IMG/VR virus record: IMGVR_UViG_2609459803_000002
Location: 1 to 12,160 of that record
From: a virus
Taxonomy: Duplodnaviria; Heunggongvirae; Uroviricota; Caudoviricetes
Strand: one strand, 5' to 3'
Length of the DNA stretch: 12,160 bases
Part shown: positions 1 through 12,160 of the stretch, piece by piece
Layout: every line of letters starts with the position of its first letter
Numbering within the stretch: position 1 is the first letter of the stretch
Made by a program: the position numbers and the translations under genes
The notes under the pieces: generated by a model
What the model saw: only the letters and a program-made list of their open reading frames with translations
What the model was told of the DNA's origin: nothing
Databases searched by the model: none

Positions 1-123
1 TGCAAATTCATTATAAACATCATCACTGACAGCCAGAGCATCATCTGGCCATGAATTTGCATTAATGTAATCATCCTTAAGTGCAGGATTCACAAAAATG
101 TTTAAAGATGGACTATAAAACAT
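1..123 (-). CDS. Tail fiber assembly protein (Tfa-like chaperone), N-terminal 41 codons only; gene runs off the window start
   Basis: ATG at 123..121 sits one nt after the tail fiber stop. Own translation MFYSPSLNIFVNPALKDDYINANSWPDDALAVSDDVYNEFA carries the WP.DA..VS..Y.EF N-terminal signature recalled for enterobacterial tail fiber assembly proteins. Absent from the ORF track because it is partial. Confidence 0.5.
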   Translation of the reverse strand, partial: MFYSPSLNIFVNPALKDDYINANSWPDDALAVSDDVYNEFA

Positions 124-124
124 A

Positions 125-763
125 TTACACCCCTATAGCGATATAACGACCTAATACAGCGTTTGCAGCAGTCGCTATGCTTGAAAAACCGCGGAACTGA
201 TTTGATGTAATTGCAGAAGCCGACAGGATTCCTGCGCCTGAAGGTGTATGCCCCACATGACTAACTATCATTCCATAACATGCTGACGGAAAGGCAAAAG
301 GAAAATCGTTAAGATATCCGGCATCTTCACCACCAGACCCACCAAATCTCGCCTGCCCCCACTGAATAATCAGTGTTCTCCGGGAACCTGAAATAATTAA
401 CGGGATCGTTACATACCCATTCAGGCCAATGACACCAGATGCAGTGCCAGCCAGAGATAATTCTCCCAAACCAAGGTTTTCGAGAGCCGTTTTCACGGTG
501 CCATCCGATTTGATATCGCCAAACGGATTCTTGCGGCTTAACAGCAGCGCACGAAGCGCGGTAAGCAGCTGGTCGTGTTGCGCCTTCTCCAGACTAGCAC
601 CGGATGCCTCCACCACGCTGCAAAGCTCCTCCTGCAACATGTCAAAGTAGTCATCATCCAGATCGGTAGCAGGCGTGCCAGTCTGGGGGTTACCACGGGT
701 AAAACCGTTTTTACCCGCGCCGAACTTATCCTTCTGCGCGGTTTTCGTGTCTATACGATGCAT
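125..763 (-). CDS. Phage tail fiber protein, short (212 aa)
   Basis: ORF-track protein ([22 protein letters not shown]...) with Gly/Ser-rich C-terminal half, GGAG ribosome-binding site 6 nt upstream of the ATG, and a tightly coupled tfa-like gene immediately downstream. Family assignment is by context and recall, not by search. Confidence 0.55.
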
Positions 764-1574
764 GGATTACTCCGGATACCGAACCGTTGAGCATCTCGAT
801 AACTTCCCGCCGCTTGTCGTAGCACGGCCCCTCAATGTTGTACCCGGCGGTGGTGATGGCCCACATCAGTGGCTGACGTCGCGCGCCCATCCCGGTAAGC
901 ATCGTGGTATAAAGCGCATCGGTGGCGTGCTCGTGATATTCATCCACCACGGCACAGTGGGGTGATGAACCATCACCGGGGTTACCGATCAGCGGTTCAA
1001 ACCGCGCGCCATCCTCCGGACGGTTCATGTTTGAGGCGTTAACCTCAATCCCGAACGCTTCCGTCAGCATGGGTGTGCGTTTACACATCAGTCGCGCCGG
1101 GCGAAAGACTTCCCACGCCTGTTTCTCTGTCGTGGCACCGGAATACACTTCCGCGCCAAACTCGTTATCACAGGCAAAACAATACAGGGCAACACCGGCA
1201 GAGATTGCCGATTTGCCGTTCTTACGGGGGATTTCGGTATACACCTCCCTGAAGCGGCGCAGCCGGGAGCCTTTATTGACCCAGCCAAACGCACAGCAGA
1301 TCACAAAGAGCTGCCACGGTTCCAGCGTGATGGGCATCCTCTTGAATGCCCACTCCCCCTTGGTGTGTGGCAACAGCTGAATAAATTTCGCGGCCCGTTC
1401 AGCCAGGTCCTTGTCGAAGCGGTAACGAAACGACTTACTTTTTTCCGCCATCAGGTCATCAAGATGGCGCTGGCAGGCCTGAATCACAAACTGGCAGGCC
1501 ACAATCTTTCCGCGCACGACATCACGGGCATACTGATTGGCAGCATTTACGTTGGGGTAAGATTTCCGGCTCAT
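726..1574 (-). pseudogene. Large terminase subunit, N-terminal ATPase domain only (3'-truncated remnant of a roughly 550-aa HK97-type protein)
   Basis: Walker A-like IPRKNGKS and Walker B-like CAVVDEYHE motifs are present. The ORF stops at 282 aa, shortly after the ITTAG motif, with no nuclease domain in any frame; the next gene is the tail fiber. Start overlaps the TerS stop, as is typical. Confidence 0.75.
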
Positions 1575-2065
1575 GATTCGATGATTTTCAGAAACGGGTT
1601 AGTGGCTTTCTTCTGCCCCGCCAGGCCAATCAGACGCTGGCGGCTGCTGGGGTCGAGTCCGAGCATTGCCCCCGTGCTGCTCATCTCGGACTCCTGTTCT
1701 TTCTTGGCGGTCAGCTCCGGATTTTTGACCATGCCACCCATTGCACCGGTGATGGTGTTGCCCTGTCTGGCAATATTTTTCACGGCACGCCGCCAGAACT
1801 CGTAGGCCACGCACCACCGCTCAAGCACCGCGAGGTCAGTCACGCACAGCAGGCCCTGACCGCAGAGTTCTTTGGTTGTCAGTTGCCACATGATCGTGGC
1901 GAGAGGGAGATCTTCTTCAGCGAACCACTCCGGTGGCTCAACACCTTTGATGGGCGTAAAAACAGGTTCATCTTTATTCAGGGCTCGCTTGCCGGGGTTT
2001 CCGGCCAGCGCCTTGCGCGCCGTTGGCTTGGGGCGACGCCCGGACCCCCCCGCCGTTCCAGCCAT
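1571..2065 (-). CDS. Small terminase subunit, P27 family
   Basis: N-terminus [30 protein letters not shown] matches the recalled P27-family signature. Start chosen at ATG 2065..2063 (AGGAG 8 nt upstream) rather than the GTG at 2074 used by the ORF track. Confidence 0.8.
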
Positions 2066-2104
2066 ATGCGGCACTCCTGGTTAAATTTCATTTTTCGCGG
2101 GTAT

Positions 2105-2164
2105 AAAAAAACGATGGGGCGGGCAGTCCGGAAGACGTCAGGTCACAGGGATGTGACCCGCCCC
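2105..2164 (-). other. GC-rich nested inverted repeat between HNH and TerS: candidate cos/packaging site or intrinsic terminator
   Basis: GGGGCGGG (2116-2123) pairs with CCCGCCCC (2157-2164) and encloses the hairpin GTCACA-ggga-TGTGAC (2142-2157). A run of 7 A (2105-2111) gives a U-tract on the minus strand after the structure. Confidence 0.3.
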
Positions 2165-2190
2165 TCCCCTCAGACAGTTGAGAGTTATTA

Positions 2191-2541
2191 TCACTTTAAC
2201 CGTTCACGGACCGTCTTCGCCTTATGACACGGCCAACACAGACTCTGCAGATTACAGTCGGCATCAGTGCCGCCATGCGCTTTAGGGATGATGTGGTCAA
2301 CGGTTTTCGCCTCACGCACCACACCGGCACGCAGACATAACTGACATAAACCTTTGTCACGCTTCAGCACACGCGCGCGGATAGCGTCCCACTTCGAACC
2401 ATAACCGCGCTGATGACGGGACTGACCTGGCTTGTATTGCTTCCAGCCTTCGCTTTTGTGGCTTTCGCAGTAGCCTGACGGGTCTGTGGTTGTAGAGCGG
2501 CAGCCGCGAACACGGCAGGCTTTTGGGGTTCGTGGTGGCAT
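2191..2541 (-). CDS. HNH endonuclease (phage packaging-associated)
   Basis: Cys/His pattern CQLC...VDHIIP...GG...NLQSLCWPCH typical of HNH; GGAG ribosome-binding site 7 nt upstream of ATG 2541; located directly upstream of TerS as in HK97-like phages. Confidence 0.85.
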   Translation of the reverse strand: MPPRTPKACRVRGCRSTTTDPSGYCESHKSEGWKQYKPGQSRHQRGYGSKWDAIRARVLKRDKGLCQLCLRAGVVREAKTVDHIIPKAHGGTDADCNLQSLCWPCHKAKTVRERLK

Positions 2542-2559
2542 TGGTAAGCTCCAATAAAA

Positions 2560-2585
2560 AAGCCACCATCGATTGCTAGTGGCTT
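2560..2585 (-). terminator. Terminator-like hairpin downstream of the orphan gene
   Basis: AAGCCAC (2560-2566) pairs with GTGGCTT (2579-2585) around a 12-nt loop; on the minus strand the stem is followed by a U-run. The stem is short, so strength is uncertain. Confidence 0.3.
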
Positions 2586-2611
2586 AGCATCTACTAATGT
2601 GAAGAGTAGGT

Positions 2612-3370
2612 TTATTTTTTCTTCTTATTTAACTTATCTAAATTGACGGGATCTTTCCCTGTGGCAGCTAAACACCAAAAAGAATAACTCTTTTGCATGA
2701 CATAGGTTCTAATTCTCTCTAATGTTTCATTATATTTTTTCTCAACAACCTGTATCGCATGTTCAAATAAATTAATCATATCAACATGCTCGTCCTCGAC
2801 ACCAATCATGCTCAGTTGTTTTCTATCTGTCACTGCTTGATAAAATGTTTTCCCATTTTTCCTTATTAGTAACAATGAAGTTTCTGCTGACTCATAGTCT
2901 TGGTTGCCGCTATGTGCTGCAAAATTATGCCTGTAGTTAATAATACAGTCATGCAACCCAAAATATTCAGAATCAAGCCAATCACGCTCCATCTTTAACT
3001 TTCTCCCTTTAGCTTCAGAGAAAGCTTTACCATAAAACGTTAGGCTTGCCACAAATAACGCTCTAATTTCACTTGATAAATCTAGATCAAGTATATTCCC
3101 GTATAACTTGCCATCTGTCCTTAATTCGTTTCTCCCTGCCAGTTCATTAGCTATTTGGTACCACTCTTTAGCACTTTTTAAGTCCCTATGAATTAGTGAC
3201 AGTGAAGATGCTCTATCGGCAATACGCCCACTCAATTTTATGCGATCTACAATTTCATTATTGAATGTATAAACCGCTTTAAATTCCCCCGTTTCGGAAT
3301 CAATATAATATTCAACATCTAACCCTTCATATGATTCACACCCGGGACCTTCTAATTTTTTTCTTTTCAT
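2612..3370 (-). CDS. Hypothetical cytoplasmic protein (252 aa), AT-rich cargo gene with an Rx5H motif (possible HEPN-like abortive-infection or toxin protein)
   Basis: Long clean ORF in a visibly AT-richer stretch. Start taken at ATG 3370..3368 (M9 of the ORF-track protein, whose first codon is TTG). Motif YRHNFAAH lies within an otherwise unassignable sequence; no signal peptide or membrane segment is evident. Confidence 0.6.
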   Translation of the reverse strand: MKRKKLEGPGCESYEGLDVEYYIDSETGEFKAVYTFNNEIVDRIKLSGRIADRASSLSLIHRDLKSAKEWYQIANELAGRNELRTDGKLYGNILDLDLSSEIRALFVASLTFYGKAFSEAKGRKLKMERDWLDSEYFGLHDCIINYRHNFAAHSGNQDYESAETSLLLIRKNGKTFYQAVTDRKQLSMIGVEDEHVDMINLFEHAIQVVEKKYNETLERIRTYVMQKSYSFWCLAATGKDPVNLDKLNKKKK

Positions 3371-3451
3371 ATAGAATATCCATATACGTTTCAATTCTCA
3401 GTCAGCATAGTAGAAAAAAAAGATGTCCAGATCCATACATCGAAAGCAATT

Positions 3452-3916
3452 TTAGTTTTCACACTGACTAGAGATATAGTCCTGCAATGCTCTTATCTGT
3501 TTATAACTGATTTCAATTCTCTCTCTGAGGGTGAAATAATCCCGTTGAGCGGTGTCAGTAAGTCGGGGGGCGGTAGCATCATCCAGGCTGGTGGTAATGG
3601 TCGTTGATTGCACTCTCGGGCAACTAGCGGCGAGGAACAGCCGCTTAGTGCCAACAGCAACATCACGCTGAAGCTGTTCAATAGTTGCTTTAGCATTTGC
3701 AAGTTCTCCGGTGTATTTCGCATCGAGCGCAGAAACATCACGCTGGCGCTGCTGCATCTCAGTAATGGTGGCGTTCGCCTGGCTGAGTTTTTCCTTCGCT
3801 TTATCGCGCTGTTCTTTGTAGGCGATGGCGTTATCACGATAATGATTAACAGCCCATGATAGGCAGACGATGGTGCAGATAACCAGAGAGGACAGAATCG
3901 CAGTTACTCTACTCAT
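3452..3916 (-). CDS. Rz: Rz inner-membrane spanin
   Basis: From the internal start [31 protein letters not shown] the protein closely matches recalled lambda Rz (N-terminal membrane segment, coiled-coil body). ATG at 3916..3914 overlaps the endolysin stop. Confidence 0.85.
3493..3696 (-). CDS. Rz1: Rz1 outer-membrane lipoprotein spanin, embedded in the +1 frame of Rz
   Basis: Internal start gives [22 protein letters not shown]... with lipobox LSGC, then the proline-rich [27 protein letters not shown], closely matching recalled lambda Rz1. Confidence 0.75.
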
Positions 3917-4391
3917 ATAGCTGAATTTCTCTGACCGTTCCGCCCGATTCTTTGAATTTTTCAATCAGGCTGTCAACCTTATGTTCGAACTGACCATAAC
4001 CAGCGCCCGGCAATGACGCCCAGATATTGCTGCAACGATCAATAGCCTGACGGATATCGCCGCGATCAATCATCGGTAAAGCACCACGCTCTTTAATCTG
4101 CTGCAATGCCACAGCATCCTGGCTTTTTGGAGAGAAGTCTTTCAGCCCAAGCTGCTTACGGTAAGCATCCCACCAGCGTGAAAGAAGCTGATAACGTCCT
4201 GCGGCTGTTGATTTAAGTTTCGGGTTTAGCGTGACAAGTTTGCGAGGGTGATCGGAGTAATCAGTGAACAGTTCACCTCCGACAATAACGTCATAACCGT
4301 GGTTACGTGTCGGTTGTCGCCCGTTATCCGTTCCTTCTGACCATGCCACCATATCGAGGAAAGCTTTACGCTGGGAATTTAGTACCTGCAT
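3909..4391 (-). CDS. R: Endolysin, lambda R-type lytic transglycosylase
   Basis: [61 protein letters not shown]... is near-identical over most of its length to recalled lambda R. Confidence 0.9.
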
Positions 4392-4394
4392 AAA

Positions 4395-4721
4395 TTACTC
4401 CTTAGAGCCACCAAACTTATTACCGATTACTCTCATTGCAGCCCCACGAATAGCATCGACCCCGATCAGCCCAACGCCGCCACCAATGGCAACAGAAAGA
4501 GATTTAGGCCATCCGACATACTCAAGAGCGGATGCAAAAGTCAGCGTCAGAGCACCACAGAGCAAAATCTCGAGCGTTTTTCGTTTCCAGCCACCACCAC
4601 CGCCAAAATAGGCAATGCGCAAGCCAGCCATAACGATCGACATAATCACTGCGCCCAGCGGTGTGTCTCCACGCCACCAGCTCTGGACCAACTCCAGCCA
4701 GGTATTTGGGTTATGAGGCAT
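4395..4721 (-). CDS. Holin, lambda S-like (three-membrane-segment class I)
   Basis: Sits immediately upstream of the endolysin. Hydrophobic segments and motifs (MAGLRIAYFGGGG; GVDAIRGAAMRVIGNKFGG) line up with lambda S features (MAYLRGRYNGG; GTDSIGSLIKRFAAKKAG). Exact start not resolved. Confidence 0.7.
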   Translation of the reverse strand: MPHNPNTWLELVQSWWRGDTPLGAVIMSIVMAGLRIAYFGGGGGWKRKTLEILLCGALTLTFASALEYVGWPKSLSVAIGGGVGLIGVDAIRGAAMRVIGNKFGGSKE

Positions 4722-4963
4722 TTGTAGTTATCTCTCACCTCGCCGATACAGGAGGTGCAAATTGAGGGAGTACCACGAACCGCAAACCAGAAGCGGAAAC
4801 GTAAAAGAAGCCGAGCCAATGGATAAGTGCTAGATAGACCAAGCCCAACGAATACCAAGGCCCAGAAATGACAAAACCCGCTCGACGGCAGGTTTAAGCT
4901 GTGTGGCGAAGTAACCACTCTTAACAGATTACACGATAAAATGCGGACCGCGTGAGGAAAACT

Positions 4964-5056
4964 ATGGTTTTTTTGAAGCGAATGAGTAAAATCAACGCCA
5001 CTTTGCACATAAGTTATCCACACTGTACGTTTGCAAAATCTCATTGCTCTCTTTGA
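4964..5056 (+). CDS. Small ORF (30 aa, MVFLKRMSKINATLHISYPHCTFAKSHCSL) upstream of the peptidase gene; candidate leader peptide or small protein
   Basis: GAGGA ribosome-binding site 5 nt upstream of ATG 4964; below the ORF-track size cut-off. No family signature. Confidence 0.2.
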   Translation: MVFLKRMSKINATLHISYPHCTFAKSHCSL

Positions 5057-5175
5057 GTTTTGTAAATGCGCTAATTTTTGGACTTTTTTTGCCGATAGAA
5101 TCTAACCACTTGTGTGGTAAGTTCTGAATGAATGTTACCTCTTGGTTTGAAAATTCTTAACATAAGGACATCTGA

Positions 5176-6171
5176 ATGTTTGAGCAGCGTAAAGCCCTGT
5201 ATGCGCAACTGGAACAAGCACGCAATTCAAAAGTATTATGCTATGTAACAGGTGATAGACCAAACCAAGAAGCTCAAATCAGCGCTGATGTATTCGATCT
5301 GTTCGTCAATCATCTTGATGTGATAGGTGATGTTCAAAAAATTAGCCTCGTGCTCTATACGCGAGGCGGCGACACTTTAACAGCATGGAGCCTTGTAAAC
5401 CTGCTTCGTCAGTTTTGTAAAGAACTCGAAATCATAATCCCATCAAAATGCCATAGTTCTGGGACGATAATGTGCCTTGGCGCGAACAACTTGGTTATGA
5501 CCAAGCAGGCAACCTTAGGGCCAATCGATCCAAGTGTGAATACACCACTTAACCCTTCGGCCATAATCAATGGGCAGCCACTTCAACTTCCAGTCAGTGT
5601 TGAAGAAATCAATGGCTATCTTGAAGTAGTTAAGCATGATTTGAGTATCAAAGATGATGCCTCACTTGCACAGATCCTCCTTGCATTAAGTGAAAAGGTT
5701 CATCCCTTGGTACTTGGAAAAGTCTATCGAGCTAAAGCGCAGATTCAAATGCTCGCAAGAAAACTACTGTCTCACCAACTCACTGATAGTGAAAGCATTG
5801 AGAAAATTGTAAGTTTCCTTTGTAGTGATTCTGGTAGCCATGACTACACTATAAATAGGATTGAAGCGGTAAACGATTTAGGTCTTACGGTGGAAAAACC
5901 AGATGAGCACCTTTACGGTCTGATCAAAGAAATTTATGAAGATTTCAAAACTGAGATGCATCTGGGTGAACCTTTTGACCCAAATGCTATCTTAGGAACA
6001 GTTAACCAGGCATCGTACGTATCTGTCAGAAGCATTTTAGAGGCTCCAGACACGTTTTCATATCAATTCCGCACTGAGGGGATGTTACAGCGTTTTCAAG
6101 TTCCAGGCGTCCCAGGTCAGTTCGGCATAAATCATAACCTTATCTCAGAGGGGTGGGCTCGACATGGATAA
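5176..6171 (+). CDS. ClpP/crotonase-fold serine peptidase (SppA / S49 / SDH-proteinase-like), cargo gene
   Basis: AAGGA ribosome-binding site 7 nt upstream of ATG 5176. Segment LVLYTRGGDTLTAWSLVNLL ... IIIPSKCHSSGTIMCLGANNLVMTKQATLGPIDP matches the GG ... (A/S)SxGT ... TLG.I core of ClpP/SppA-fold peptidases. Opposite strand to and AT-richer than the flanking phage genes. Confidence 0.7.
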   Translation: MFEQRKALYAQLEQARNSKVLCYVTGDRPNQEAQISADVFDLFVNHLDVIGDVQKISLVLYTRGGDTLTAWSLVNLLRQFCKELEIIIPSKCHSSGTIMCLGANNLVMTKQATLGPIDPSVNTPLNPSAIINGQPLQLPVSVEEINGYLEVVKHDLSIKDDASLAQILLALSEKVHPLVLGKVYRAKAQIQMLARKLLSHQLTDSESIEKIVSFLCSDSGSHDYTINRIEAVNDLGLTVEKPDEHLYGLIKEIYEDFKTEMHLGEPFDPNAILGTVNQASYVSVRSILEAPDTFSYQFRTEGMLQRFQVPGVPGQFGINHNLISEGWARHG

Positions 6172-6343
6172 CAAATCATCTACAGGTAACTTTGTAGTCT
6201 ATACTAACAGGCATACAACTACAGCTGCGCCTAAGCCAGCAAGCATTCCATCCACTGCTCAAAAAACAAGCAACAATGGCGTCAATGGCTACAGTAACTT
6301 TTTAAGTTGCACCACAGGTTCAGTCATAAAAAACAGTTTCTAA
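6164..6343 (+). CDS. Small S/T/N-rich ORF (59 aa), translationally coupled to the peptidase gene
   Basis: ATG 6164 overlaps the peptidase stop in an ATGGATAA arrangement, with GGTGGG upstream. Own translation MDNKSSTGNFVVYTNRHTTTAAPKPASIPSTAQKTSNNGVNGYSNFLSCTTGSVIKNSF; stop at 6341-6343 lies directly before the terminator hairpin. Could be spurious given its low complexity. Confidence 0.3.
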   Translation: MDNKSSTGNFVVYTNRHTTTAAPKPASIPSTAQKTSNNGVNGYSNFLSCTTGSVIKNSF

Positions 6344-6344
6344 A

Positions 6345-6371
6345 AACAACGGCTCTCTAAGAGCCGTTGTT
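6345..6371. terminator. Bidirectional intrinsic terminator hairpin between the convergent Q and peptidase operons
   Basis: Perfect stem ACAACGGCTC (6346-6355) / GAGCCGTTGT (6361-6370), extendable by one A-T pair, with loop TCTAA. Followed by a U-run on the minus strand and a weaker U-rich tract on the plus strand. Confidence 0.5.
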
Positions 6372-6375
6372 GTAT

Positions 6376-6738
6376 CTATTCACATTCTAAACGTATATCG
6401 AGCATACTAAGGCAACCATCGATAAATCCCTCAGCCATCTGTATCTCAATGCGTATTAGTTTCTCATCCTTTTTACTAGCCTTGGCGAGCTTTCTTTTAG
6501 AGATACCGTATAGGTAATGGGCAACAAGAAGCGAATGTTCGTCCGGCCTTTTTTGCTTTAGACGAGCAAGACAACCTTCAATAATTAATGCATCACTATC
6601 TGAACAAGCCTGACGTGTTTTACTTGTATAGGGAAGAAGCCCTTTAAACCCAGCAGCTATAGGCGAATAATCTACTCCAGAACTATCACTCGCCGCCCAT
6701 GCTCCCCAACGCTCCAGAACCATCTGAATATCACGCAT
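6376..6738 (-). CDS. Late-gene antiterminator Q (phage 82 / QuuD-like family)
   Basis: N-terminus MRDIQMVLERWGAWAA and C-terminus GFIDGCLSMLDIRLE match the recalled QuuD-type signature. Start taken at ATG 6738 (GGAG 7 nt upstream) rather than the TTG at 6753. Position between the nin-like genes and the lysis cassette fits. Confidence 0.8.
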   Translation of the reverse strand: MRDIQMVLERWGAWAASDSSGVDYSPIAAGFKGLLPYTSKTRQACSDSDALIIEGCLARLKQKRPDEHSLLVAHYLYGISKRKLAKASKKDEKLIRIEIQMAEGFIDGCLSMLDIRLECE

Positions 6739-6755
6739 CAACTTTCTCCACAAAA

Positions 6756-7751
6756 TCAGGCCAGCACACCAATCGCCAGCGCACGATCGATAAAACGAAA
6801 TATCAGCTCCAGCTGGGAGCCATACTTCTCTTCAAATGCCACGGTATCCGCATGCAGCTCGTCGTGATGCTTTCTGCACAAAGGCAACACAAAAAGGTCA
6901 TGCGCTTTTGTACCCATTCCACCCTGACCGTGGCCTATCAGGTGGTGGGGATCATCAGCGGGCTTTCCACAACATGCACACGGCTGCGTCTTAACCCAGC
7001 GCGTGTACTTTTCATTAACCCAGCGGCGACGTTTTGGGCGTAACATAAAAGACTCCGGCGACTCCGGCTCCACTTTCAGCGCCAGCACCTTTTTCGCTTT
7101 ATCCTGGATGATGCTGGTGGCAGGAACCGAAGGAACAAGATCACTTTCCCGGGTGACAGACGGCACAACAGGCTTCGGTAATCTCAGTGCCTTACGGGCT
7201 GCACTTTCCGGTAAGGCATCCGCCAGGTCATTACGAACCAGCCACCAGCACAGTTCCGGCATTGTCACAACGTGACTGTCATCAAAACCGAGATCCCGAC
7301 GCACGACAGACAACACCCAGCTGGCACAGTTATCCGTTGCCATTGATTCCAGCCGTTCCGTGAACTGATCGCGCAGCTGGTTATCGCAGTGCCAGCACAG
7401 ACGGATTGCGCCCGGAGCGTGTCGCATTGTGGTCATGTTCTCGCTGTGCCAGTCGGAATGAGGCCACTGGCAGCCTTTTTCACGAAGTAACCAGCTTTCA
7501 AGACATTCCACGCCACCAGCACGACGGATCACCGCCTCATTGCGGAACACAGCCCGAACGGCAGGATCATCCGCCAGTGGTTGTAATGCCGCCGGAACGG
7601 CACCACTGGAAAAAGATGAATAATGTTCCGGCTCAGGCTCCAGCAGGACACGCCCCTGCATAAACAGGGGCATCAGCTCTGAACCGGGTCTGAACAATAC
7701 GATCCCCATACGCGGGGCAATTTCAGGGGTCAGTAGCGCTCTCACGGTCAC
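6756..7751 (-). CDS. DUF968/YdfU-like prophage protein with a C-terminal HNH-like Cys/His cluster
   Basis: C-terminal CACCGKPADDPHHLIGHGQGGMGTKAHDLFVLPLCRKHHDELH; family name is from recall and unverified. GTG start abuts the KilA-N stop; exact start uncertain. Confidence 0.6.
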   Translation of the reverse strand: MTVRALLTPEIAPRMGIVLFRPGSELMPLFMQGRVLLEPEPEHYSSFSSGAVPAALQPLADDPAVRAVFRNEAVIRRAGGVECLESWLLREKGCQWPHSDWHSENMTTMRHAPGAIRLCWHCDNQLRDQFTERLESMATDNCASWVLSVVRRDLGFDDSHVVTMPELCWWLVRNDLADALPESAARKALRLPKPVVPSVTRESDLVPSVPATSIIQDKAKKVLALKVEPESPESFMLRPKRRRWVNEKYTRWVKTQPCACCGKPADDPHHLIGHGQGGMGTKAHDLFVLPLCRKHHDELHADTVAFEEKYGSQLELIFRFIDRALAIGVLA

Positions 7752-7752
7752 C

Positions 7753-8556
7753 TCAATGAACGGTATCGAGCAGCTTTAACAGCTCAGGGAATCGGGATTC
7801 GAAGAAATGCGGCTGCGTCTCACGCGGATTTGCAGGACTGGTGATGTTCTTGCCGAACATGCAGCCTTTCGCCGTCAGCGACCAGAATTTTTTAATGTTG
7901 TTAATTGCGGTACGGCTGTATCGTTCGCGTTGTTCAACGATCCCCAGCTTCGCCATCTGGTGATATGCCTGATTAGCCGTCAGGCGGATACCATACTGCT
8001 TCAGCAGTGCACTCAGCGCCAGCGTCGGGCGGCTTGAGCCATCAGGCGCGTCAGCAGGAGCATCAATGGCATAGCGCGGTGCCAGATTCGGTAAGCCAAC
8101 AGCCTCCTGGAGTTTCTGACAGGCACCAAGCACAGATGAGTTAGACAGGTTTAACTCCCGACGCATAAAGTCCAGCAGAATCACACCAGCCTGCATCTTG
8201 TCAGCAGCCTGCCCGGATAATTTTTCCGGTGCGCTGGTTACCATATCGAAAGTACGGATCACCTTCAGATGGAATGACGGGCTGATCCACATTGCATAGG
8301 CATACACCAGTTCTTTGCAGACATACGTCCCCTGGTTATTTCCGCCACGAATAACGTTAACTGGCTCTATATTGACATTGACCGAGTTGCAAATCTGCAA
8401 CTCGCTTATTAAACGTTCAGTTTGCTCATTGCGGAGCCAGAATGCAGGCTTATGCTTATCCAGAGAACCGGCAGCCCTGTGCAGATCGTTCAGGCTGTAA
8501 CGACCATAAGCATCACGACGAACTTCAATACCATCAATGACCATCAGATTATTCAT
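7753..8556 (-). CDS. KilA-N domain protein (antirepressor-like)
   Basis: N-terminal MNNLMVIDGIEVRRDAYGRYSLNDLHRAAG...KHKPAFWLRNEQTERLISEL resembles the KilA-N DNA-binding domain. Start at ATG 8556 with GAGGAG 9 nt upstream (the ORF track starts at an upstream GTG). Confidence 0.7.
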   Translation of the reverse strand: MNNLMVIDGIEVRRDAYGRYSLNDLHRAAGSLDKHKPAFWLRNEQTERLISELQICNSVNVNIEPVNVIRGGNNQGTYVCKELVYAYAMWISPSFHLKVIRTFDMVTSAPEKLSGQAADKMQAGVILLDFMRRELNLSNSSVLGACQKLQEAVGLPNLAPRYAIDAPADAPDGSSRPTLALSALLKQYGIRLTANQAYHQMAKLGIVEQRERYSRTAINNIKKFWSLTAKGCMFGKNITSPANPRETQPHFFESRFPELLKLLDTVH

Positions 8557-8575
8557 ACTTCGTTTCTCCTCTTGA

Positions 8576-8875
8576 TCAGGCGGCTGCACCCGCCGTTTTC
8601 TCGTACTTACTGATAGTGATCTCGACCTTCCCTTCCGGGATAACCGGTCCCCACTCCACCAGCATTCTTTTCACCTGACTGTCGTCTTCCCACACACCCG
8701 CGTGGGTCAGGGCGTCAAACAGCGCCTTGTTATAGTTGTCCAGATCGCGGATCCGGTTACAGGAAGCGCAATCAGTTGCGAGCGACGGTAGTGTGTTGTT
8801 AAACTGTTCATGCGTTAGTTTCTCCACAGTCACGACACGCCACGGCGCCCGGAGCTGCACACTCGCGGGCGTCAT
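8576..8875 (-). CDS. rusA: RusA-like Holliday junction resolvase
   Basis: RIRDLDNYNKALFDALTHAGVWEDDSQV matches the RusA catalytic-aspartate region (RRDLDN...FDAL...DD). Start taken at the first in-frame ATG (8875); this gives a shorter N-terminus than recalled RusA and overlaps the upstream gene by 68 nt. Confidence 0.6.
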   Translation of the reverse strand: MTPASVQLRAPWRVVTVEKLTHEQFNNTLPSLATDCASCNRIRDLDNYNKALFDALTHAGVWEDDSQVKRMLVEWGPVIPEGKVEITISKYEKTAGAAA

Positions 8876-9404
8876 TACTTTCTGAAATGCAAAAGATTTT
8901 GTAGACCAGTGCTGCATGCTCCTGCAGCTTCGAAATTGAGAGATACAGCTCGTCGTTAATTGCTGTCTTCTCATGCGGTTCCACCACACCGTCTTCGATT
9001 GCCGAACGAATCTGTCTGGAATAACTGCCAATCTGTTCAATGACTTCCAGCAGGCGCTGGTTAATATCGGCGTTGTCCACATCCTCGACGTCAGGAAGAG
9101 ACACAAAGACGCCATTTGCAGACTGCGCCACAGCGTCAGCAATGAAGTGAGTTCCACCAGCACGTTGCAAAATCATTGCCCATCCCAGCGGGAAAATCTG
9201 ATCGCCATCGGCACGAAGGCGGTTAAATAATGCGTTTTCTGTTACATCCAGCCAGTCAGCTGCTTCAGCGTAACCACCCGGCAACGCTGCGATAGTTTTT
9301 CTGACAGCTTTCACGTACCACTCAGGCTGTTTTTCTACTTTCCAGTGATGCTTACCCACGGTTAGCCTCATCGTTCTGTGGTTTCTGTTAATCGATTTAT
9401 CCAT
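8808..9404 (-). CDS. CII-like regulatory protein (phage 186 CII / e14 YmfL type)
   Basis: Central segment YAEAADWLDVTENALFNRLRADGDQIFPLGWAMILQRAGG parallels the helix-turn-helix region recalled for phage 186 CII. Lies directly after cro. Start is ambiguous (ATGs at 9416, 9404, 9371); 9404 overlaps the cro stop as ATGGATAA. Confidence 0.5.
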   Translation of the reverse strand: MDKSINRNHRTMRLTVGKHHWKVEKQPEWYVKAVRKTIAALPGGYAEAADWLDVTENALFNRLRADGDQIFPLGWAMILQRAGGTHFIADAVAQSANGVFVSLPDVEDVDNADINQRLLEVIEQIGSYSRQIRSAIEDGVVEPHEKTAINDELYLSISKLQEHAALVYKIFCISESNDARECAAPGAVACRDCGETNA

Positions 9405-9597
9405 TAGATTTTTCATAAAGCTCAGGTTTAAATGGCAACCGTCCGCAAGTTCTATATGCAGCTTCTGCTGCACGTCCTTTTGGAATTAACTGGCCCGGAC
9501 GGTTTCGCCACTGATAAACGGCTTCAGTTGTTATGCCGAAAAAAGCAGCAACTTTCTCAATACTGCCGAAGTAGCTTTCGATATCGTCAGTTGTCAT
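9397..9597 (-). CDS. Cro-like small helix-turn-helix regulator
   Basis: 66 aa, divergent from the repressor across a 97-bp operator region; GGAGG ribosome-binding site; sequence VAAFFGITTEAVYQWRN is consistent with a helix-turn-helix. Confidence 0.6.
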   Translation of the reverse strand: MTTDDIESYFGSIEKVAAFFGITTEAVYQWRNRPGQLIPKGRAAEAAYRTCGRLPFKPELYEKSNG

Positions 9598-9694
9598 ACG
9601 CCCTCCAAACTAAGTTTTATTAGATGCTAATTACAAATCTATCTTTGGTCAATAAAAACTAAGATTACTTAGCAATTCAAGAAATGGTGCTCCT
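9598..9694. promoter_or_regulatory. Divergent promoter/operator region of the immunity switch
   Basis: Minus-strand promoter candidate TTGACC (9652..9647) -17 nt- TAGCAT (9629..9624) for cro. Operator-like palindromes CTAAG-ATTA-CTTAG (9659-9672) and CTAAG-TTTT-ATTAG (9610-9623) flank it. Confidence 0.5.
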
Positions 9695-10321
9695 ATGGAA
9701 ACGGTTGGTCAGCGTATAAAAGCTCTGAGAAGAGTTACCGGAACGTCCCAGAAAGAATTGGGTAAATTTTGTGGAGTAAGCGACGTTGCTGTGGGGTACT
9801 GGGAGAAAGACATCAATACCCCTGGTGGGGAGGCACTTTCGAAATTAGCGAAGTTCTTCAATACGTCAATAGATTACATTCTTTATGGTGCTGAGTTTGA
9901 AGGCAAACTCGTCACAAACATGCGCAGAGTTCCTGTAATATCGTGGGTTCAGGCTGGGCAGTTTACTGAGTGCAGGGCAGCAGAAGTGTTTAGTGAAGTG
10001 GACAAGTGGGTAGATACATCATTAAAGATTGGTGATAACTCATTTGCATTAGAGGTTAAAGGTGACTCCATGACTAACCCTAATGGCCTCCCAACAATAC
10101 CAGAAGGCGCAACAGTGATTGTAGATCCAGATGCAGAACCTCGTCATGGAAAAATAGTCATCGCTCGACTTGATGGAACAAACGAAGCTACAGTAAAAAA
10201 ATTAGTCATCGATGGCCCTCAAAAGTTTTTAGTGCCATTAAATCCTCGGTATCCCAACATCCCTATCAATGGTAATTGCCTTATCATTGGTGTAGTCAAA
10301 GGAGTTCAATACGAACTCTAA
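9695..10321 (+). CDS. cI-like prophage repressor (N-terminal helix-turn-helix plus C-terminal LexA-like S24 autopeptidase domain)
   Basis: N-terminal QKELGKFCGVSDVAVGYWE helix-turn-helix; Ala-Gly cleavage site in VQAGQF; catalytic Ser in KGDSM and Lys in TVKKL. Confidence 0.9.
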   Translation: METVGQRIKALRRVTGTSQKELGKFCGVSDVAVGYWEKDINTPGGEALSKLAKFFNTSIDYILYGAEFEGKLVTNMRRVPVISWVQAGQFTECRAAEVFSEVDKWVDTSLKIGDNSFALEVKGDSMTNPNGLPTIPEGATVIVDPDAEPRHGKIVIARLDGTNEATVKKLVIDGPQKFLVPLNPRYPNIPINGNCLIIGVVKGVQYEL

Positions 10322-10343
10322 GACCTCTCTTCTCTAACTAAGG

Positions 10344-10376
10344 CACCGAACTAAGAAAAGTTTGGTGTTTTCTCTT
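10344..10376 (+). terminator. Intrinsic terminator downstream of the repressor gene
   Basis: CACCGAACT (10344-10352) pairs with AGTTTGGTG (10359-10367), 9 bp including one G-U, loop AAGAAA, followed by TTTTCTCTT. Confidence 0.5.
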
Positions 10377-10403
10377 GCCATAATAACTAAGTTAAGTTAG
10401 ATT
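10375..10403 (+). promoter_or_regulatory. Sigma70-like promoter candidate with overlapping operator-like palindrome
   Basis: TTGCCA (10375-10380) -17 nt- TAGATT (10398-10403). CTAAG-TTAA-GTTAG (10386-10399) sits in the spacer and resembles the operator motif next to cro. Confidence 0.3.
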
Positions 10404-10527
10404 TTATATCAAAGATAACGAACAGGCAGGACGCCCACGAAGTAGCCGCCTGGGGAATATGAAGTCCAGGATGATTCGTTGAGTCATGTTGTGCCACCAG
10501 GCACTCATGTTAAAGCAGGTGTATGAA

Positions 10528-10803
10528 ATGAAAGTCCAGATTTTAAACAATAACTGTGAAGTCGTTTGGTCATACGACATAGCCGCCCCTGTAGATCAGA
10601 GCGGCGATAGCTGGACCAATGGGAAACATCAGATTATGGCTGGAGTTGTGTTCTCTTTACGCCGTGCTTTGGAACAGGCTGAAGTATTTCCATCAGACCC
10701 TGAATGGAAATGGCCTTTTTCTATTTGTCCAAATTCGGAGAGCACATTTCAGAAAATTGGTCAGAAAGTCGCACTCGAAGAGCATCAGCCAACTGTTTCC
10801 TGA
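10528..10803 (+). CDS. Hypothetical protein (91 aa), first gene outward from the repressor's far side
   Basis: Start at ATG 10528 with AGGTG 8 nt upstream (the ORF track starts at 10486). Not arginine-rich, so not an obvious N-like antiterminator. 3' end overlaps the convergent minus-strand ORF. Confidence 0.4.
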   Translation: MKVQILNNNCEVVWSYDIAAPVDQSGDSWTNGKHQIMAGVVFSLRRALEQAEVFPSDPEWKWPFSICPNSESTFQKIGQKVALEEHQPTVS

Positions 10804-10966
10804 TTTTTTCAGGTAACTCGTCGGCATCGCAGAAACAACAACGCTCGATCATGTTGAAAGCCGATTCGTAGAACTGTTTCTGCTGAGTGTCGCTGAGACA
10901 GGAAAAGAGCGACGTTACGATGATTTTATTAATTGCATTATCAAGTTCTTTTTCATCAAAAGTCAT
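10721..10966 (-). CDS. Hypothetical small protein (81 aa, Cys-containing CCFCDADE segment)
   Basis: AAGGA ribosome-binding site 8 nt upstream of ATG 10966; plausible charged, helical composition; convergent with and overlapping the 3' end of the 10528-10803 ORF by 83 nt. Confidence 0.5.
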   Translation of the reverse strand: MTFDEKELDNAINKIIVTSLFSCLSDTQQKQFYESAFNMIERCCFCDADELPEKIRKQLADALRVRLSDQFSEMCSPNLDK

Positions 10967-11220
10967 TTGATTTTCCTTTTATGTATACGGGCTTAAAAGG
11001 ATACCACCGAGCCTGAAGTGGTGAAAAGACAGGCACATAACAGCTAAGTATTTTCAACCAGAGAGAATCCTTAGCGTTGTGGTGAATGCGGCTCAGCGCA
11101 CGCGGGTTAAGGTTGAGGCTGACAGTCGACCTTCTGTAGATACCCACCCGCCTGGTGTGCAACCTTCGCCAGGCACCGGGAGGCACCCGGCACCACAACT
11201 TTATGCTGTGTGTAGTCCTG

Positions 11221-11267
11221 GCGGTACCAGTTTGTACCCTTGCTTCCGGCTGGTACCGCTCTTTTTA
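11221..11267 (+). terminator. Terminator-like hairpin inside the GC-rich noncoding island
   Basis: GCGGTACCAG (11221-11230) pairs with CTGGTACCGC (11250-11259) around a 19-nt loop, followed by TCTTTTT. Confidence 0.35.
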
Positions 11268-11403
11268 CAAAACAGAGAAGAGCATCACCGGACGACGGGC
11301 TCATAAACCAATCCATCCGGGCGGCTGCCACCGCAGGTGTTCTTCTCTGTTTTGTGGAGAAACTAATCGGCCTTGCAGGGTCGATATGATGAGGAGCAGC
11401 AAA

Positions 11404-11766
11404 ATGGCTAGCGAACGCAGTACTGATGTGCAGGCATTTATCGGGGAGCTGGACGGCGGCGTATTTGAAACCAAAATCGGCGCAGTTCTCAGTGAAGTCG
11501 CTTCCGGTGTGATGAACACGAAAACCAAAGGTAAGGTCTCACTCAACCTGGAAATCGAACCATTTGATGAGAACCGTGTGAAAATCAAACACAAACTCTC
11601 ATATGTTCGCCCGACTAACCGCGGGAAAATTTCCGAAGAAGACACCACCGAAACGCCGATGTATGTCAATCGCGGTGGTCGCCTGACTATTCTGCAGGAA
11701 GACCAGGGACAGTTACTGACTCTTGCCGGTGAACCTGACGGAAAACTCCGCGCAGCAGGTCATTAA
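11404..11766 (+). CDS. Conserved prophage protein of unknown function (120 aa; possibly YfdP-like)
   Basis: Start at ATG 11404 with GAGGAG 7 nt upstream; the ORF-track extension upstream of this is GC-rich junk-like sequence. YfdP resemblance rests on recalled size and neighbour only. Confidence 0.6.
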   Translation: MASERSTDVQAFIGELDGGVFETKIGAVLSEVASGVMNTKTKGKVSLNLEIEPFDENRVKIKHKLSYVRPTNRGKISEEDTTETPMYVNRGGRLTILQEDQGQLLTLAGEPDGKLRAAGH

Positions 11767-11831
11767 TATCGTTCTTAATTAACTGATTATTTATCTCATC
11801 ACTGAATATCTTTATATAGTGAGGACTTATT

Positions 11832-12160
11832 ATGTCTCAGAACTTAGACGCAACCGCAATTAATCAAATCCATGCCCTTATTTCTGCTCAGAGTGTTAAT
11901 GAAATTATCAGTAAGATTGGTGCCGATGCTGTGGCATTGCCTGAGAATTTCCGCATTCATGATCTGGAAAAATTTAATTTAAATCGCTTCCGTTTCCGTG
12001 GTGCGCTTTCCACTGCCAGCATCGATGACTTTACCCGTTATTCTAAAGATCTTGCAGATGAAGGCACCCGCTGCTTTATCGATGCTGATAATATGCGTGC
12101 CGTCAGTGTGCTTAACCTGGGTACTATTGATGAACCAGGTCACGCAGATAACACCGCCAC
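11832..12160 (+). CDS. Conserved prophage protein of unknown function, N-terminal part (possibly YfdQ/DUF2303-like); runs off the window end
   Basis: ATG 11832 with GAGGA 6 nt upstream. Own translation [110 protein letters not shown] has no stop within the window. Not in the ORF track because it is partial. Confidence 0.6.

Follow-up and report, generated by a model that had tools for sequence, protein, structure and literature searches.

Probable operator dyads of a P22-type immunity switch on both sides of a cI/c2-type repressor gene in an Enterobacteriaceae prophage module

The stretch of DNA analysed here (the window) comprised 12,160 nucleotides of a Caudoviricetes virus, positions 1 to 12,160 of IMG/VR record IMGVR_UViG_2609459803_000002. 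Its immunity module contained a cI/c2-type repressor gene on the plus strand (9695-10321; ATG at 9695, stop codon ending at 10321; 208 amino acids). Divergent from this gene was a cro-like gene (9397-9597, minus strand, 66 amino acids; PF14549 P22_Cro, E 4.4e-11), the first gene of the early-right operon, and beyond it a CII-like gene (8811-9362, minus strand; PF06892 Phage_CP76 (CII)). A divergent P22_Cro-family gene followed by a cII-like gene is the gene order of P22-type immunity regions. Both intergenic regions bordering the repressor gene contained 14-bp dyads, which very likely serve as operators in an immunity switch of the P22 (lambdoid) type.

The repressor was comprised of an HTH_3 domain (PF01381, E 1.1e-10) and a Peptidase_S24 domain (PF00717, E 9.2e-28). 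Compared with the P22 genome, it matched the c2 repressor over its full length with 47% identity (E 2e-65). The best solved match of its N-terminal domain was the P22 c2 N-terminal domain (E 2e-10), DNA-bound entries included; the two were 42% identical, with an altered recognition helix. The C-terminal domain was similar to that of lambda cI (E 7.5e-28), and the segments VQAGQF (Ala87-Gly88), GDSMT (Ser125) and VKKL (Lys168) aligned with Ala111-Gly112, Ser149 and Lys192 of lambda cI. These segments were invariant in 13 family members with 83-100% identity. The helix-turn-helix segment TSQK(E/D)LGKFCGVSDVAVGYWEKD was likewise constant in these members apart from one E/D change, as would be expected if family members have common operators. 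The Cro-like protein was 30% identical to P22 Cro, and its closest solved structure was N15 Cro (2hin).

Direct reading and a pattern search located three strong dyads. Two were found between the cro-like gene and the repressor gene, in the right operator region (OR): OR1 (9610-9623, CTAAGTTTTATTAG) and OR3 (9659-9672, CTAAGATTACTTAG). The third, OL1 (10387-10400, CTAAGTTAAGTTAG), was found on the far side of the repressor gene, in the left operator region (OL). A first-pass annotation of the window had reported CTAAG-N4-CTTAG at three places and offered it as the operator consensus. All three dyads were present, but only OR3 was an exact match and a perfect dyad. OR1 and OL1 each contained one mismatch (ATTAG and GTTAG, respectively), in both cases at position 10, which was therefore C, A or G. 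The third site had been placed at 10386-10399, one base off its actual position. The core common to the three strong sites was CTAA-N6-TTAG, with a preference for G at position 5. Pooling of 31 distinct sites yielded an 18-bp consensus, A-N-CTAAG-N4-NTTAG-N-T, with the half-site A-(A/T)-A-(A/T)-C-T-A-A-G-T-T, and these forms replace the earlier consensus. The number of sites also rose from three to five with the addition of two weaker dyads, OR2 (9634-9647) and OL2 (10351-10364). ArcA-type GTTA repeats were considered within OL1 and were rejected, as their spacing fails the criteria cited in PMC7719688.

The earlier annotation had asked whether the motif was more frequent than chance in AT-rich DNA, and this was the case both in the window and in the complete genomes of two phages carrying the module, LLS (42,883 bp) and mEp460_4F5 (42,927 bp). 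In the window, CTAAGNNNNCTTAG with at most one mismatch occurred three times against 0.26 expected, a count reached in 0 of 200 dinucleotide-preserving shuffles. CTAA-N6-TTAG occurred three times in each phage genome against approximately 0.6 expected from composition, and all of these sites were at positions homologous to OR1, OR3 and OL1. When a position weight matrix (PWM) was built from the half-sites, the three strong sites ranked at the top of the window with 21-25 bits (OR1 23.2; OL1 25.4, the highest score). In the window and in both 43-kb phage genomes the four best PWM matches were all inside the immunity region. The hexamer ACTAAG alone was not enriched across the whole window (7 copies observed vs. 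4.3 expected; at least 7 in 20 of 200 shuffles); five of the seven copies sat in the two intergenic regions bordering the repressor gene. The fifth and sixth PWM matches of the window were both at 2624-2642 (TTCTTATTTAACTTATCT, 9.6 bits, and an overlapping match of 6.4 bits), inside the 3' end of a minus-strand open reading frame (ORF; 2612-3394). These two matches are probably due to chance because their scores were within the range of shuffled sequence.

Placement of the motifs over or beside the -35 and -10 hexamers, as first described, was confirmed and refined by a consensus scan for promoters. The cro promoter (PR, 9652-9624, minus strand) contained the -35 hexamer TTGACC (9652-9647), a 17-bp spacer and the -10 hexamer TAGCAT (9629-9624). 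OR1 adjoined the PR -10 on its downstream side and covered the expected cro transcription start, while OR3 sat upstream of the PR -35. The PL-like early-left promoter (10375-10403, plus strand) contained TTGCCA (10375-10380), a 17-bp spacer and TAGATT (10398-10403). OL1 filled the PL spacer and overlapped the PL -10 by 3 bp. Across relatives of the module the GGTCAA of PR was invariant and its -10 kept the form TAnnAT (TAGCAT, TAACAT, TAATAT, TAGTAT, TATTAT); in PL, the TTG of the -35 and the entire TAGATT were kept in all relatives.

OR3 also contained a -10-like hexamer, TAAGAT (9660-9665, plus strand), facing the repressor gene. This hexamer was invariant in all relatives and is identical to the annotated -10 of the P22 repressor maintenance promoter (PRM), which makes it a reasonably good candidate for the PRM -10 of the repressor gene. 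An alternative PRM, with the -35 TTGGTC placed back-to-back with PR and the -10 TAGCAA, would have a lambda-like geometry with the OR2 centre near -42. It was rejected as the primary promoter, as its -10 is without the terminal T and is not conserved, whereas TAAGAT was invariant and matches the annotated P22 PRM. The hexamer TTGGTC is part of an 8-bp palindrome, TTGGTCAA (9647-9654), such that the PR -35 (TTGACC on the minus strand) reads TTGGTC on the plus strand. It could act as the back-to-back -35 of an alternative repressor promoter, although no conserved -10 backs it.

An intrinsic terminator of the repressor gene (10340-10372, plus strand) preceded PL and was comprised of the stem GGCACCGAACU/AGUUUGGUGUU and a U tract. 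Its hairpin folded at -15.1 kcal/mol (z -4.4), and the consensus fold of eight relatives contained one compensatory pair and several G-U-compatible changes. The element was absent from the list of a simple terminator scan, but folding and the alignment fold support a terminator. The SfV genome has an annotated terminator at the equivalent position.

Conservation of the dyads was followed at two depths. Intergenic regions of vB_EcoM-689R6 (689R6), mEp460 and LLS were aligned first. Eleven diverse loci with 63-90% repressor identity were then obtained through a family alignment and a GTDB scan, with one genome per species: Enterobacter, Kosakonia, Kluyvera, Serratia, Rahnella, and Providencia (Providencia repressor, 63% identity). 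All repressor copies obtained from an IMG/VR scan were 100% identical and thus uninformative for covariation. Across relatives the sites kept their positions, at approximately -86 and -37 counted from the ATG of the repressor gene and approximately +66 counted from its stop codon. The CTAA and TTAG half-sites were invariant in relatives, while the central bases, position 10 and the flanks varied.

OR1 was in position in 11 of the 11 diverse relatives with a variable centre (TTTT, TTTG, TTAA, GTTC). The centres of OR1 and OL1 started with TT in nearly all relatives and never with AT. OR3 was part of a 26-bp block, GGTCAATAAAAACTAAGATTACTTAG, that was identical in LLS even though the module was 77% identical overall. 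The 14-bp OL1 site was identical in nine of ten aligned relatives, ranging from E. coli to Rahnella and Serratia, while its flanks diverged; Providencia had its own full site at the OL1 position. Half-sites that stay invariant around a variable centre are the signature to be expected where a helix-turn-helix dimer reads an operator without contacting its centre.

Replacement of the module provided a further comparison. SfV and e14 (E. coli K-12) had the same backbone (terminator, PL position and leader) with another repressor. Both carried TGTACC...GGTACA-type dyads at the equivalent positions, with two in the SfV cro-cI region and one in each PL spacer. As a different palindrome accompanied a different repressor, the motif travels with the repressor and not with the backbone. 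The initial proposal that the dyads are repressor operators is thus supported by gene homology, by confinement of the motif, by positional conservation and by module swap. Judged from these sequence comparisons, it is highly probable that the repressor and Cro use the three strong dyads as operators.

The initial comparison of the OR/OL arrangement to lambda held for the overall layout, but the closest model was P22 immC, whose annotation was read from NC_002371 and compared position by position by script. The P22 repressor is homologous over its full length and P22 Cro belongs to the same Pfam family as the Cro-like protein of the window. Both systems had dyad operators with an AAG-N4-CTT core and a non-contacted, A/T-rich centre, and both had a tripartite OR, with spacings of 24 and 25 bp in the window and 23 and 25 bp in P22. 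OR2 began 3 nt into the PR -35 and OR1 came after the -10 in both: the P22 sequence read TTG, ACTAAAGATTCCTTTAGT, A-GATAAT and then OR1, and the window read TTG, ACCAAAGATAGATTTGTA, AT-TAGCAT and then OR1. The PRM -10 TAAGAT occupied operator positions 4-9 of OR3 in both, as ATT-TAAGAT-GACTTAACT in P22 and as AAC-TAAGAT-TACTTAGCA in the window. The PL -10 began at operator position 14 of OL1 in both, and the annotated P22 PL (TTGACC-17-TAAATT) had the same layout as PL of the window. The distance from OL1 to the upstream dyad, centre to centre, was 35 bp in P22 and 36 bp in the window.

Several features differed between the two systems. Operator position 12 was not conserved. From OR3 to the ATG of the repressor gene, the leader was 20 bp longer than in P22, OL2 was embedded in a terminator, and a third OL site was not found. 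The genome backbone was SfV/e14/mEp460-like rather than P22-like.

The DNA half-site differed at a single position. P22 half-sites are TTAAG (consensus ATTTAAGATATCTTAAAT; PMC5175364) and those of the window were CTAAG, a T to C change at P22 operator position 3. None of the strong sites fit the P22 consensus ATTTAAG-N4-CTTAAAT, as positions 3 and 16 were C and G, respectively, in every one of them. In the recognition helix, SDVAVGYWEK in the window corresponded to SNVAISQWER in P22 c2, such that P22 Asn32, Ser36 and Gln37 were replaced by Asp30, Gly34 and Tyr35 while P22 Val33 was kept as Val31. The Cro recognition helix likewise contained a tyrosine for a serine (AVYQW in the window vs. AVSQW in P22). 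In PMC5175364, the central 4 bp of the P22 operator are described as non-contacted and Val33 as the key contact, packing on the thymine methyls of TTAA. Harris et al. changed positions 3 and 16 of a synthetic P22 operator from T-A to C-G and found that wild-type P22 repressor bound the changed operator only non-specifically, with a dissociation constant of 136 nM or more, a weakening by at least 16-fold (PMC4267663). Derived from the published consensus, their changed operator would be ATCTAAGATATCTTAGAT (CTAAG-ATAT-CTTAG), a perfect instance of the window motif.

Taken together, the half-site change, the altered recognition helix and the published loss of P22 repressor binding argue for a separate immunity specificity, and the module is probably a separate immunity type from P22. 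The type of system is textbook, belonging to the P22/lambdoid repressor-operator family; it is the operator set itself that would constitute a new specificity. That the pair represents a natural specificity switch within the P22 repressor family, with the position 3 T to C change matched by parallel tyrosines in the repressor (GYW) and in Cro (YQW), is a more specific proposal and an improbable one.

A further set of dyads was observed in a more remote branch of the family, Acinetobacter Vieuvirus (loci L104 and L105; 1125-1195), where three dyads were found between divergent genes: ATAAGATTTCTTAG, CAAAGATAACTTAT, and GTAAGATAACTTAT. These were of the AAG-N4-CTT, (A/G)TAAG-N4-CTTA(G/T) type and were 22 and 25 bp apart. 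The N-terminal domains of the Vieuvirus repressors were 45-49% identical to that of the window repressor. This resemblance suggests that a TAAG-N4-CTTA core with a variable outer base is a family-wide operator trait.

The two additional dyads were weaker. OR2 (CAAATCTATCTTTG) was in the PR spacer and touched the -35; its distances to OR1 and OR3 were 24 and 25 bp, which places it exactly in the middle. Its PWM score was 4.6-5.3 bits, rank 7 among approximately 12,000 window positions. Between OR1 and OR3, the highest score fell at this 24/25-bp spacing in 10 of the 11 diverse loci, and two Rahnella loci contained the full CTAATCTTTATTAG at the OR2 position. The weak versions of OR2 had a common symmetric form, C(A/C)AA...TTTG. 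OL2 (CTAAGAAAAGTTTG) was within the hairpin of the repressor-gene terminator, with its centre 36 bp upstream of that of OL1, and was the fourth-best PWM match, with 14.2 bits in the window, 19.5 bits in the whole LLS genome and 15.3 bits in mEp460. OL2 aligned with a perfect CTAAGTTTATTTAG in Providencia, located 34 bp from the Providencia OL1, where no G+C-rich stem was evident by eye. The right half of OL2 was TTTG, not TTAG, and this is the portion required to pair in the hairpin stem. OR2 and OL2 were less well supported than the three strong sites, although on balance both are favoured as operators; they are probably low-affinity sites that rely on cooperativity.

These features suggest how the switch would operate. 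Dimers of the repressor would bind the 14-18-bp A-N-CTAAG-N4-NTTAG-N-T sites through their helix-turn-helix N-terminal domains, each monomer reading one CTAA(G) half-site in the major groove, and the A/T-rich central 4 bp would probably be read indirectly, as in P22. Repressor at OR1 and the weak OR2 would occlude PR (TTGACC-17-TAGCAT), and the lambda-cI-like C-terminal domain probably allows OR2 to be filled cooperatively. At OR3, which overlaps the likely -10 of PRM, occupancy would lead to negative autoregulation by the repressor, and Cro would shut off repressor synthesis there. On the left, OL1 would act from within the spacer and -10 of the early-left promoter, and OL2 from a position within the cI terminator, 36 bp further upstream. 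Prophage induction would result from RecA-stimulated self-cleavage at Ala87-Gly88, by the Ser125/Lys168 dyad. The motif with its enrichment and conservation, the gene homologies, and the geometry of promoters and terminator were observed directly; that the two proteins bind these sites, as well as cooperativity, SOS inducibility, heteroimmunity and the PRM assignment, is what we infer. As OL2 and the terminator occupy common DNA, repressor occupancy could also be coupled to cI read-through into the early-left operon.

The layout was shared with lambda: cI and cro are divergent, OR contains three sites, and the early-left promoter downstream of cI carries an OL. Homology to lambda cI was found in the S24 C-terminal domain, where the Ala-Gly site and the Ser/Lys dyad aligned, but the N-terminal domains had no significant similarity and the alignment mainly covered the C-terminal domain. 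Lambda operators are 17 bp long and unrelated in sequence. Unlike lambda, there was no rexAB between cI and PL in the window. The OR-OL distance was approximately 0.78 kb, compared to 2.4 kb in lambda. The 434 repressor has an HTH_3 fold like that of the window repressor, with negligible sequence similarity (E 0.26) and a different half-site. Operators of 434 (ACAA-N6-TTGT) are likewise dyads of 14 bp, in which the four outer bases are invariant, position 5 varies and the centre is read indirectly.

A number of points weigh against reading the dyads as operators of a P22-type switch. The literature searched contained no binding or expression data for the window repressor. The PWM was derived from the same family of sites that it ranked, and the ranking of the strong sites is therefore partly circular. 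The PRM was not pinned, as its -35 (ATCTAT) was poor and not conserved; a poor -35 is, however, usual for activator-dependent maintenance promoters. OR2 was weak by sequence (approximately 5 bits) and rests on its position and its Rahnella counterpart, and OL2 overlaps a terminator hairpin that alone could partly explain its dyad symmetry and conservation. Lastly, the prophage looks defective, in which case the switch may be only partly functional here.

Of the other explanations, the one that best survives accepts the dyads as operators and reduces the switch to two functional OR sites and one OL site, with OR2 and OL2 non-functional and with neither cooperativity nor PRM activation. This is unlikely, although not markedly so. 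The low score of OR2 and the contribution of the hairpin to OL2 would fit such a reduced switch, as would the repressor of 933W, which is reported in PMC3317979 to be non-cooperative at adjacent sites. It leaves aside that the central dyad had the same spacing in 10 of 11 loci and was a full site in Rahnella, that OL2 was perfect in Providencia where a G+C-rich stem was not seen, that the OL1-OL2 spacing of 34-36 bp is close to the 35 bp of P22, and that the C-terminal domain shows clear homology to that of lambda cI, which is cooperative.

A second explanation retains the sites and changes the binder, such that Cro alone, a host factor or a restriction-modification (R-M) controller of the C.Csp231I type, and not the cI-type repressor, would be the main binding protein. 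The C-box of C.Csp231I is CTAAG-n5-CTTAG, and lethal off-target binding of this controller was described in the switch of the Rac prophage (PMC9638921). C.Csp231I is an HTH_3/Xre-family dimer with half-sites identical to those of the window dyads; its spacer, however, is 5 bp, whereas the dyads had a 4-bp spacer in every site of every relative and never one of 5 bp. Similarity between C.Csp231I and the window repressor was marginal (E 0.03). The controller regulates an R-M operon and is without an S24 domain and a Cro partner, and no C, methyltransferase or endonuclease gene was adjacent to the window repressor. C.Csp231I was therefore regarded as a resemblance and not as a member of the system, with a small chance of biological cross-talk. 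Cro proteins normally use the operators of their repressor, but use of the sites by Cro is already part of the repressor/Cro operator interpretation. As the motif also strictly co-occurred with the window-type repressor/Cro pair, a different main binder is very improbable. The identical half-sites nevertheless mean that acquisition of a C.Csp231I-type R-M system could perturb or induce window-type prophages, as shown for Rac; such controllers occur in Citrobacter, which also carries the window-type repressor.

The weakest explanation, that the dyads are chance A/T-rich palindromes or parts of promoter hexamers with no dedicated binding protein, can draw on the A/T-richness of both intergenic regions, the unremarkable window-wide frequency of ACTAAG alone, and the overlap of OL1 and OR3 with -10-like hexamers, but its probability is close to negligible given that no shuffle held three sites, that the strict sites of two 43-kb genomes (three in each) were all in the immunity region, that half-sites stayed invariant while adjoining non-promoter bases drifted over a large phylogenetic distance, and that another palindrome replaced the motif when the repressor type changed.

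Operators of the P22-type switch described here belong to a common immunity module. At least 80% of the 1,084-bp module was present in 517 of 5,426 complete E. coli genomes (approximately 1 in 10). The repressor family was found at 83-100% identity in many Enterobacteriaceae and at 80-84% in Serratia and Rahnella, and relatives occurred in Citrobacter, Salmonella, Enterobacter, Klebsiella, Raoultella, Kluyvera, Serratia, and Rahnella. Among 50,697 deposited phage genomes, only five encoded the DNA-binding domain at 80% identity or higher, and the next relatives were below 50%. Isolated phages with the module were LLS, mEp460_4F5, and vB_EcoM-689R6. The operator strings (OR and OL sites) were absent from the searchable literature and no operators were annotated in the database records of the module-bearing phages; the operator set thus appears to be undescribed so far.

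The analysis provides a concrete and well-supported operator set for a common, uncharacterised immunity type, namely five sites, a consensus and the promoter geometry. Relative to the crystallographically studied P22 pair, the change is in essence that of a single contacted base pair and a small number of residues in the recognition helix, which makes the module a convenient natural system for studying the divergence of immunity specificities. It also serves as a parts list for annotating, inducing or silencing window-type prophages. The general picture of such switches is unchanged, and a specialist would not be surprised by it.

The rest of the window was an SfV/e14/mEp460-like prophage backbone that contained KilA-N, DUF968, holin and terminase genes. 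The immunity module was a mosaic insert in this backbone, with 99.8% identity to vB_EcoM-689R6, 94.7% to mEp460_4F5 and 77% to LLS, and SfV matched only the flanks of the cro-cI module. Mosaic junctions were at approximately 10480-10526 and to the left of approximately 9385. On the right, identity to 689R6 and mEp460 ended at approximately 10480 and SfV-type identity (homologue of orf33, 10507-10803) restarted at approximately 10526. Within 125-2074 (minus strand), a 282-amino-acid ORF with only the TerL ATPase domain (729-1574) overlapped an ORF for the C-terminal part of a tail fibre (128-763), and no portal, head or tail genes were found between the two. Because these ORFs overlap without intervening structural genes, the prophage of the window looks deleted and defective, like e14.

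A conserved structured leader of approximately 65 nt (10417-10482, plus strand) started a few bases past the expected PL start. It was comprised of ACGAACAGGCAGGACGCCCACGAAGTAGCCGCC, a 5-bp stem, the loop GGCRTATGAAKN, the return stem and then GATGATTCGTT. The leader was found behind repressor genes of several immunity types, including those of SfV (L004, approximately 3152-3217) and K-12 e14 (L101, approximately 2175-2112, minus strand) and of other E. coli prophages, and it was also present in loci L088, L089 and L098-L100. Approximately 1,400 of the 5,426 complete E. coli genomes matched a query containing the leader, and approximately 900 of these were without most of the immunity module; the partial matches listed covered the leader segment only. 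Three pairs of the leader hairpin had compensatory changes (CCTGG/CCAGG, CCGGT/ACCGG, CCCGA/TCGGG, CCCCA/TGGGG) and the enclosing helix had one. In the leader alignment 94.8% of cells paired, compared to 84.8% in shuffles, a level reached by 0 of 500 shuffles. No Rfam family was found around the operator sites or the PL leader, either in the window at gathering thresholds or in a permissive scan of 10380-10620. In many relatives the leader was followed by a hairpin and a boxA-like GCTCTTTAACAA. The leader may act in antitermination, as a nut- or put-like element, or in processing, and it may be more novel than the operators in its neighbourhood.

The small RNA sRNA-17, published and said to lie in an mEp460-like prophage, was considered as a PL transcript and was rejected, since its homologue was approximately 0.7 kb beyond PL and on the opposite strand. 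The 5' end of the 193-nt sRNA-17 of E. coli K1 RS218 was matched with one mismatch at approximately 11075-11266 on the minus strand (primers, Table S2 of PMC7719688), and its 3' end was partly matched by CGTTGTGGTGAATGCG at 11075-11090. This segment probably corresponds to the sRNA-17 copy described as degenerate in PMC7719688.

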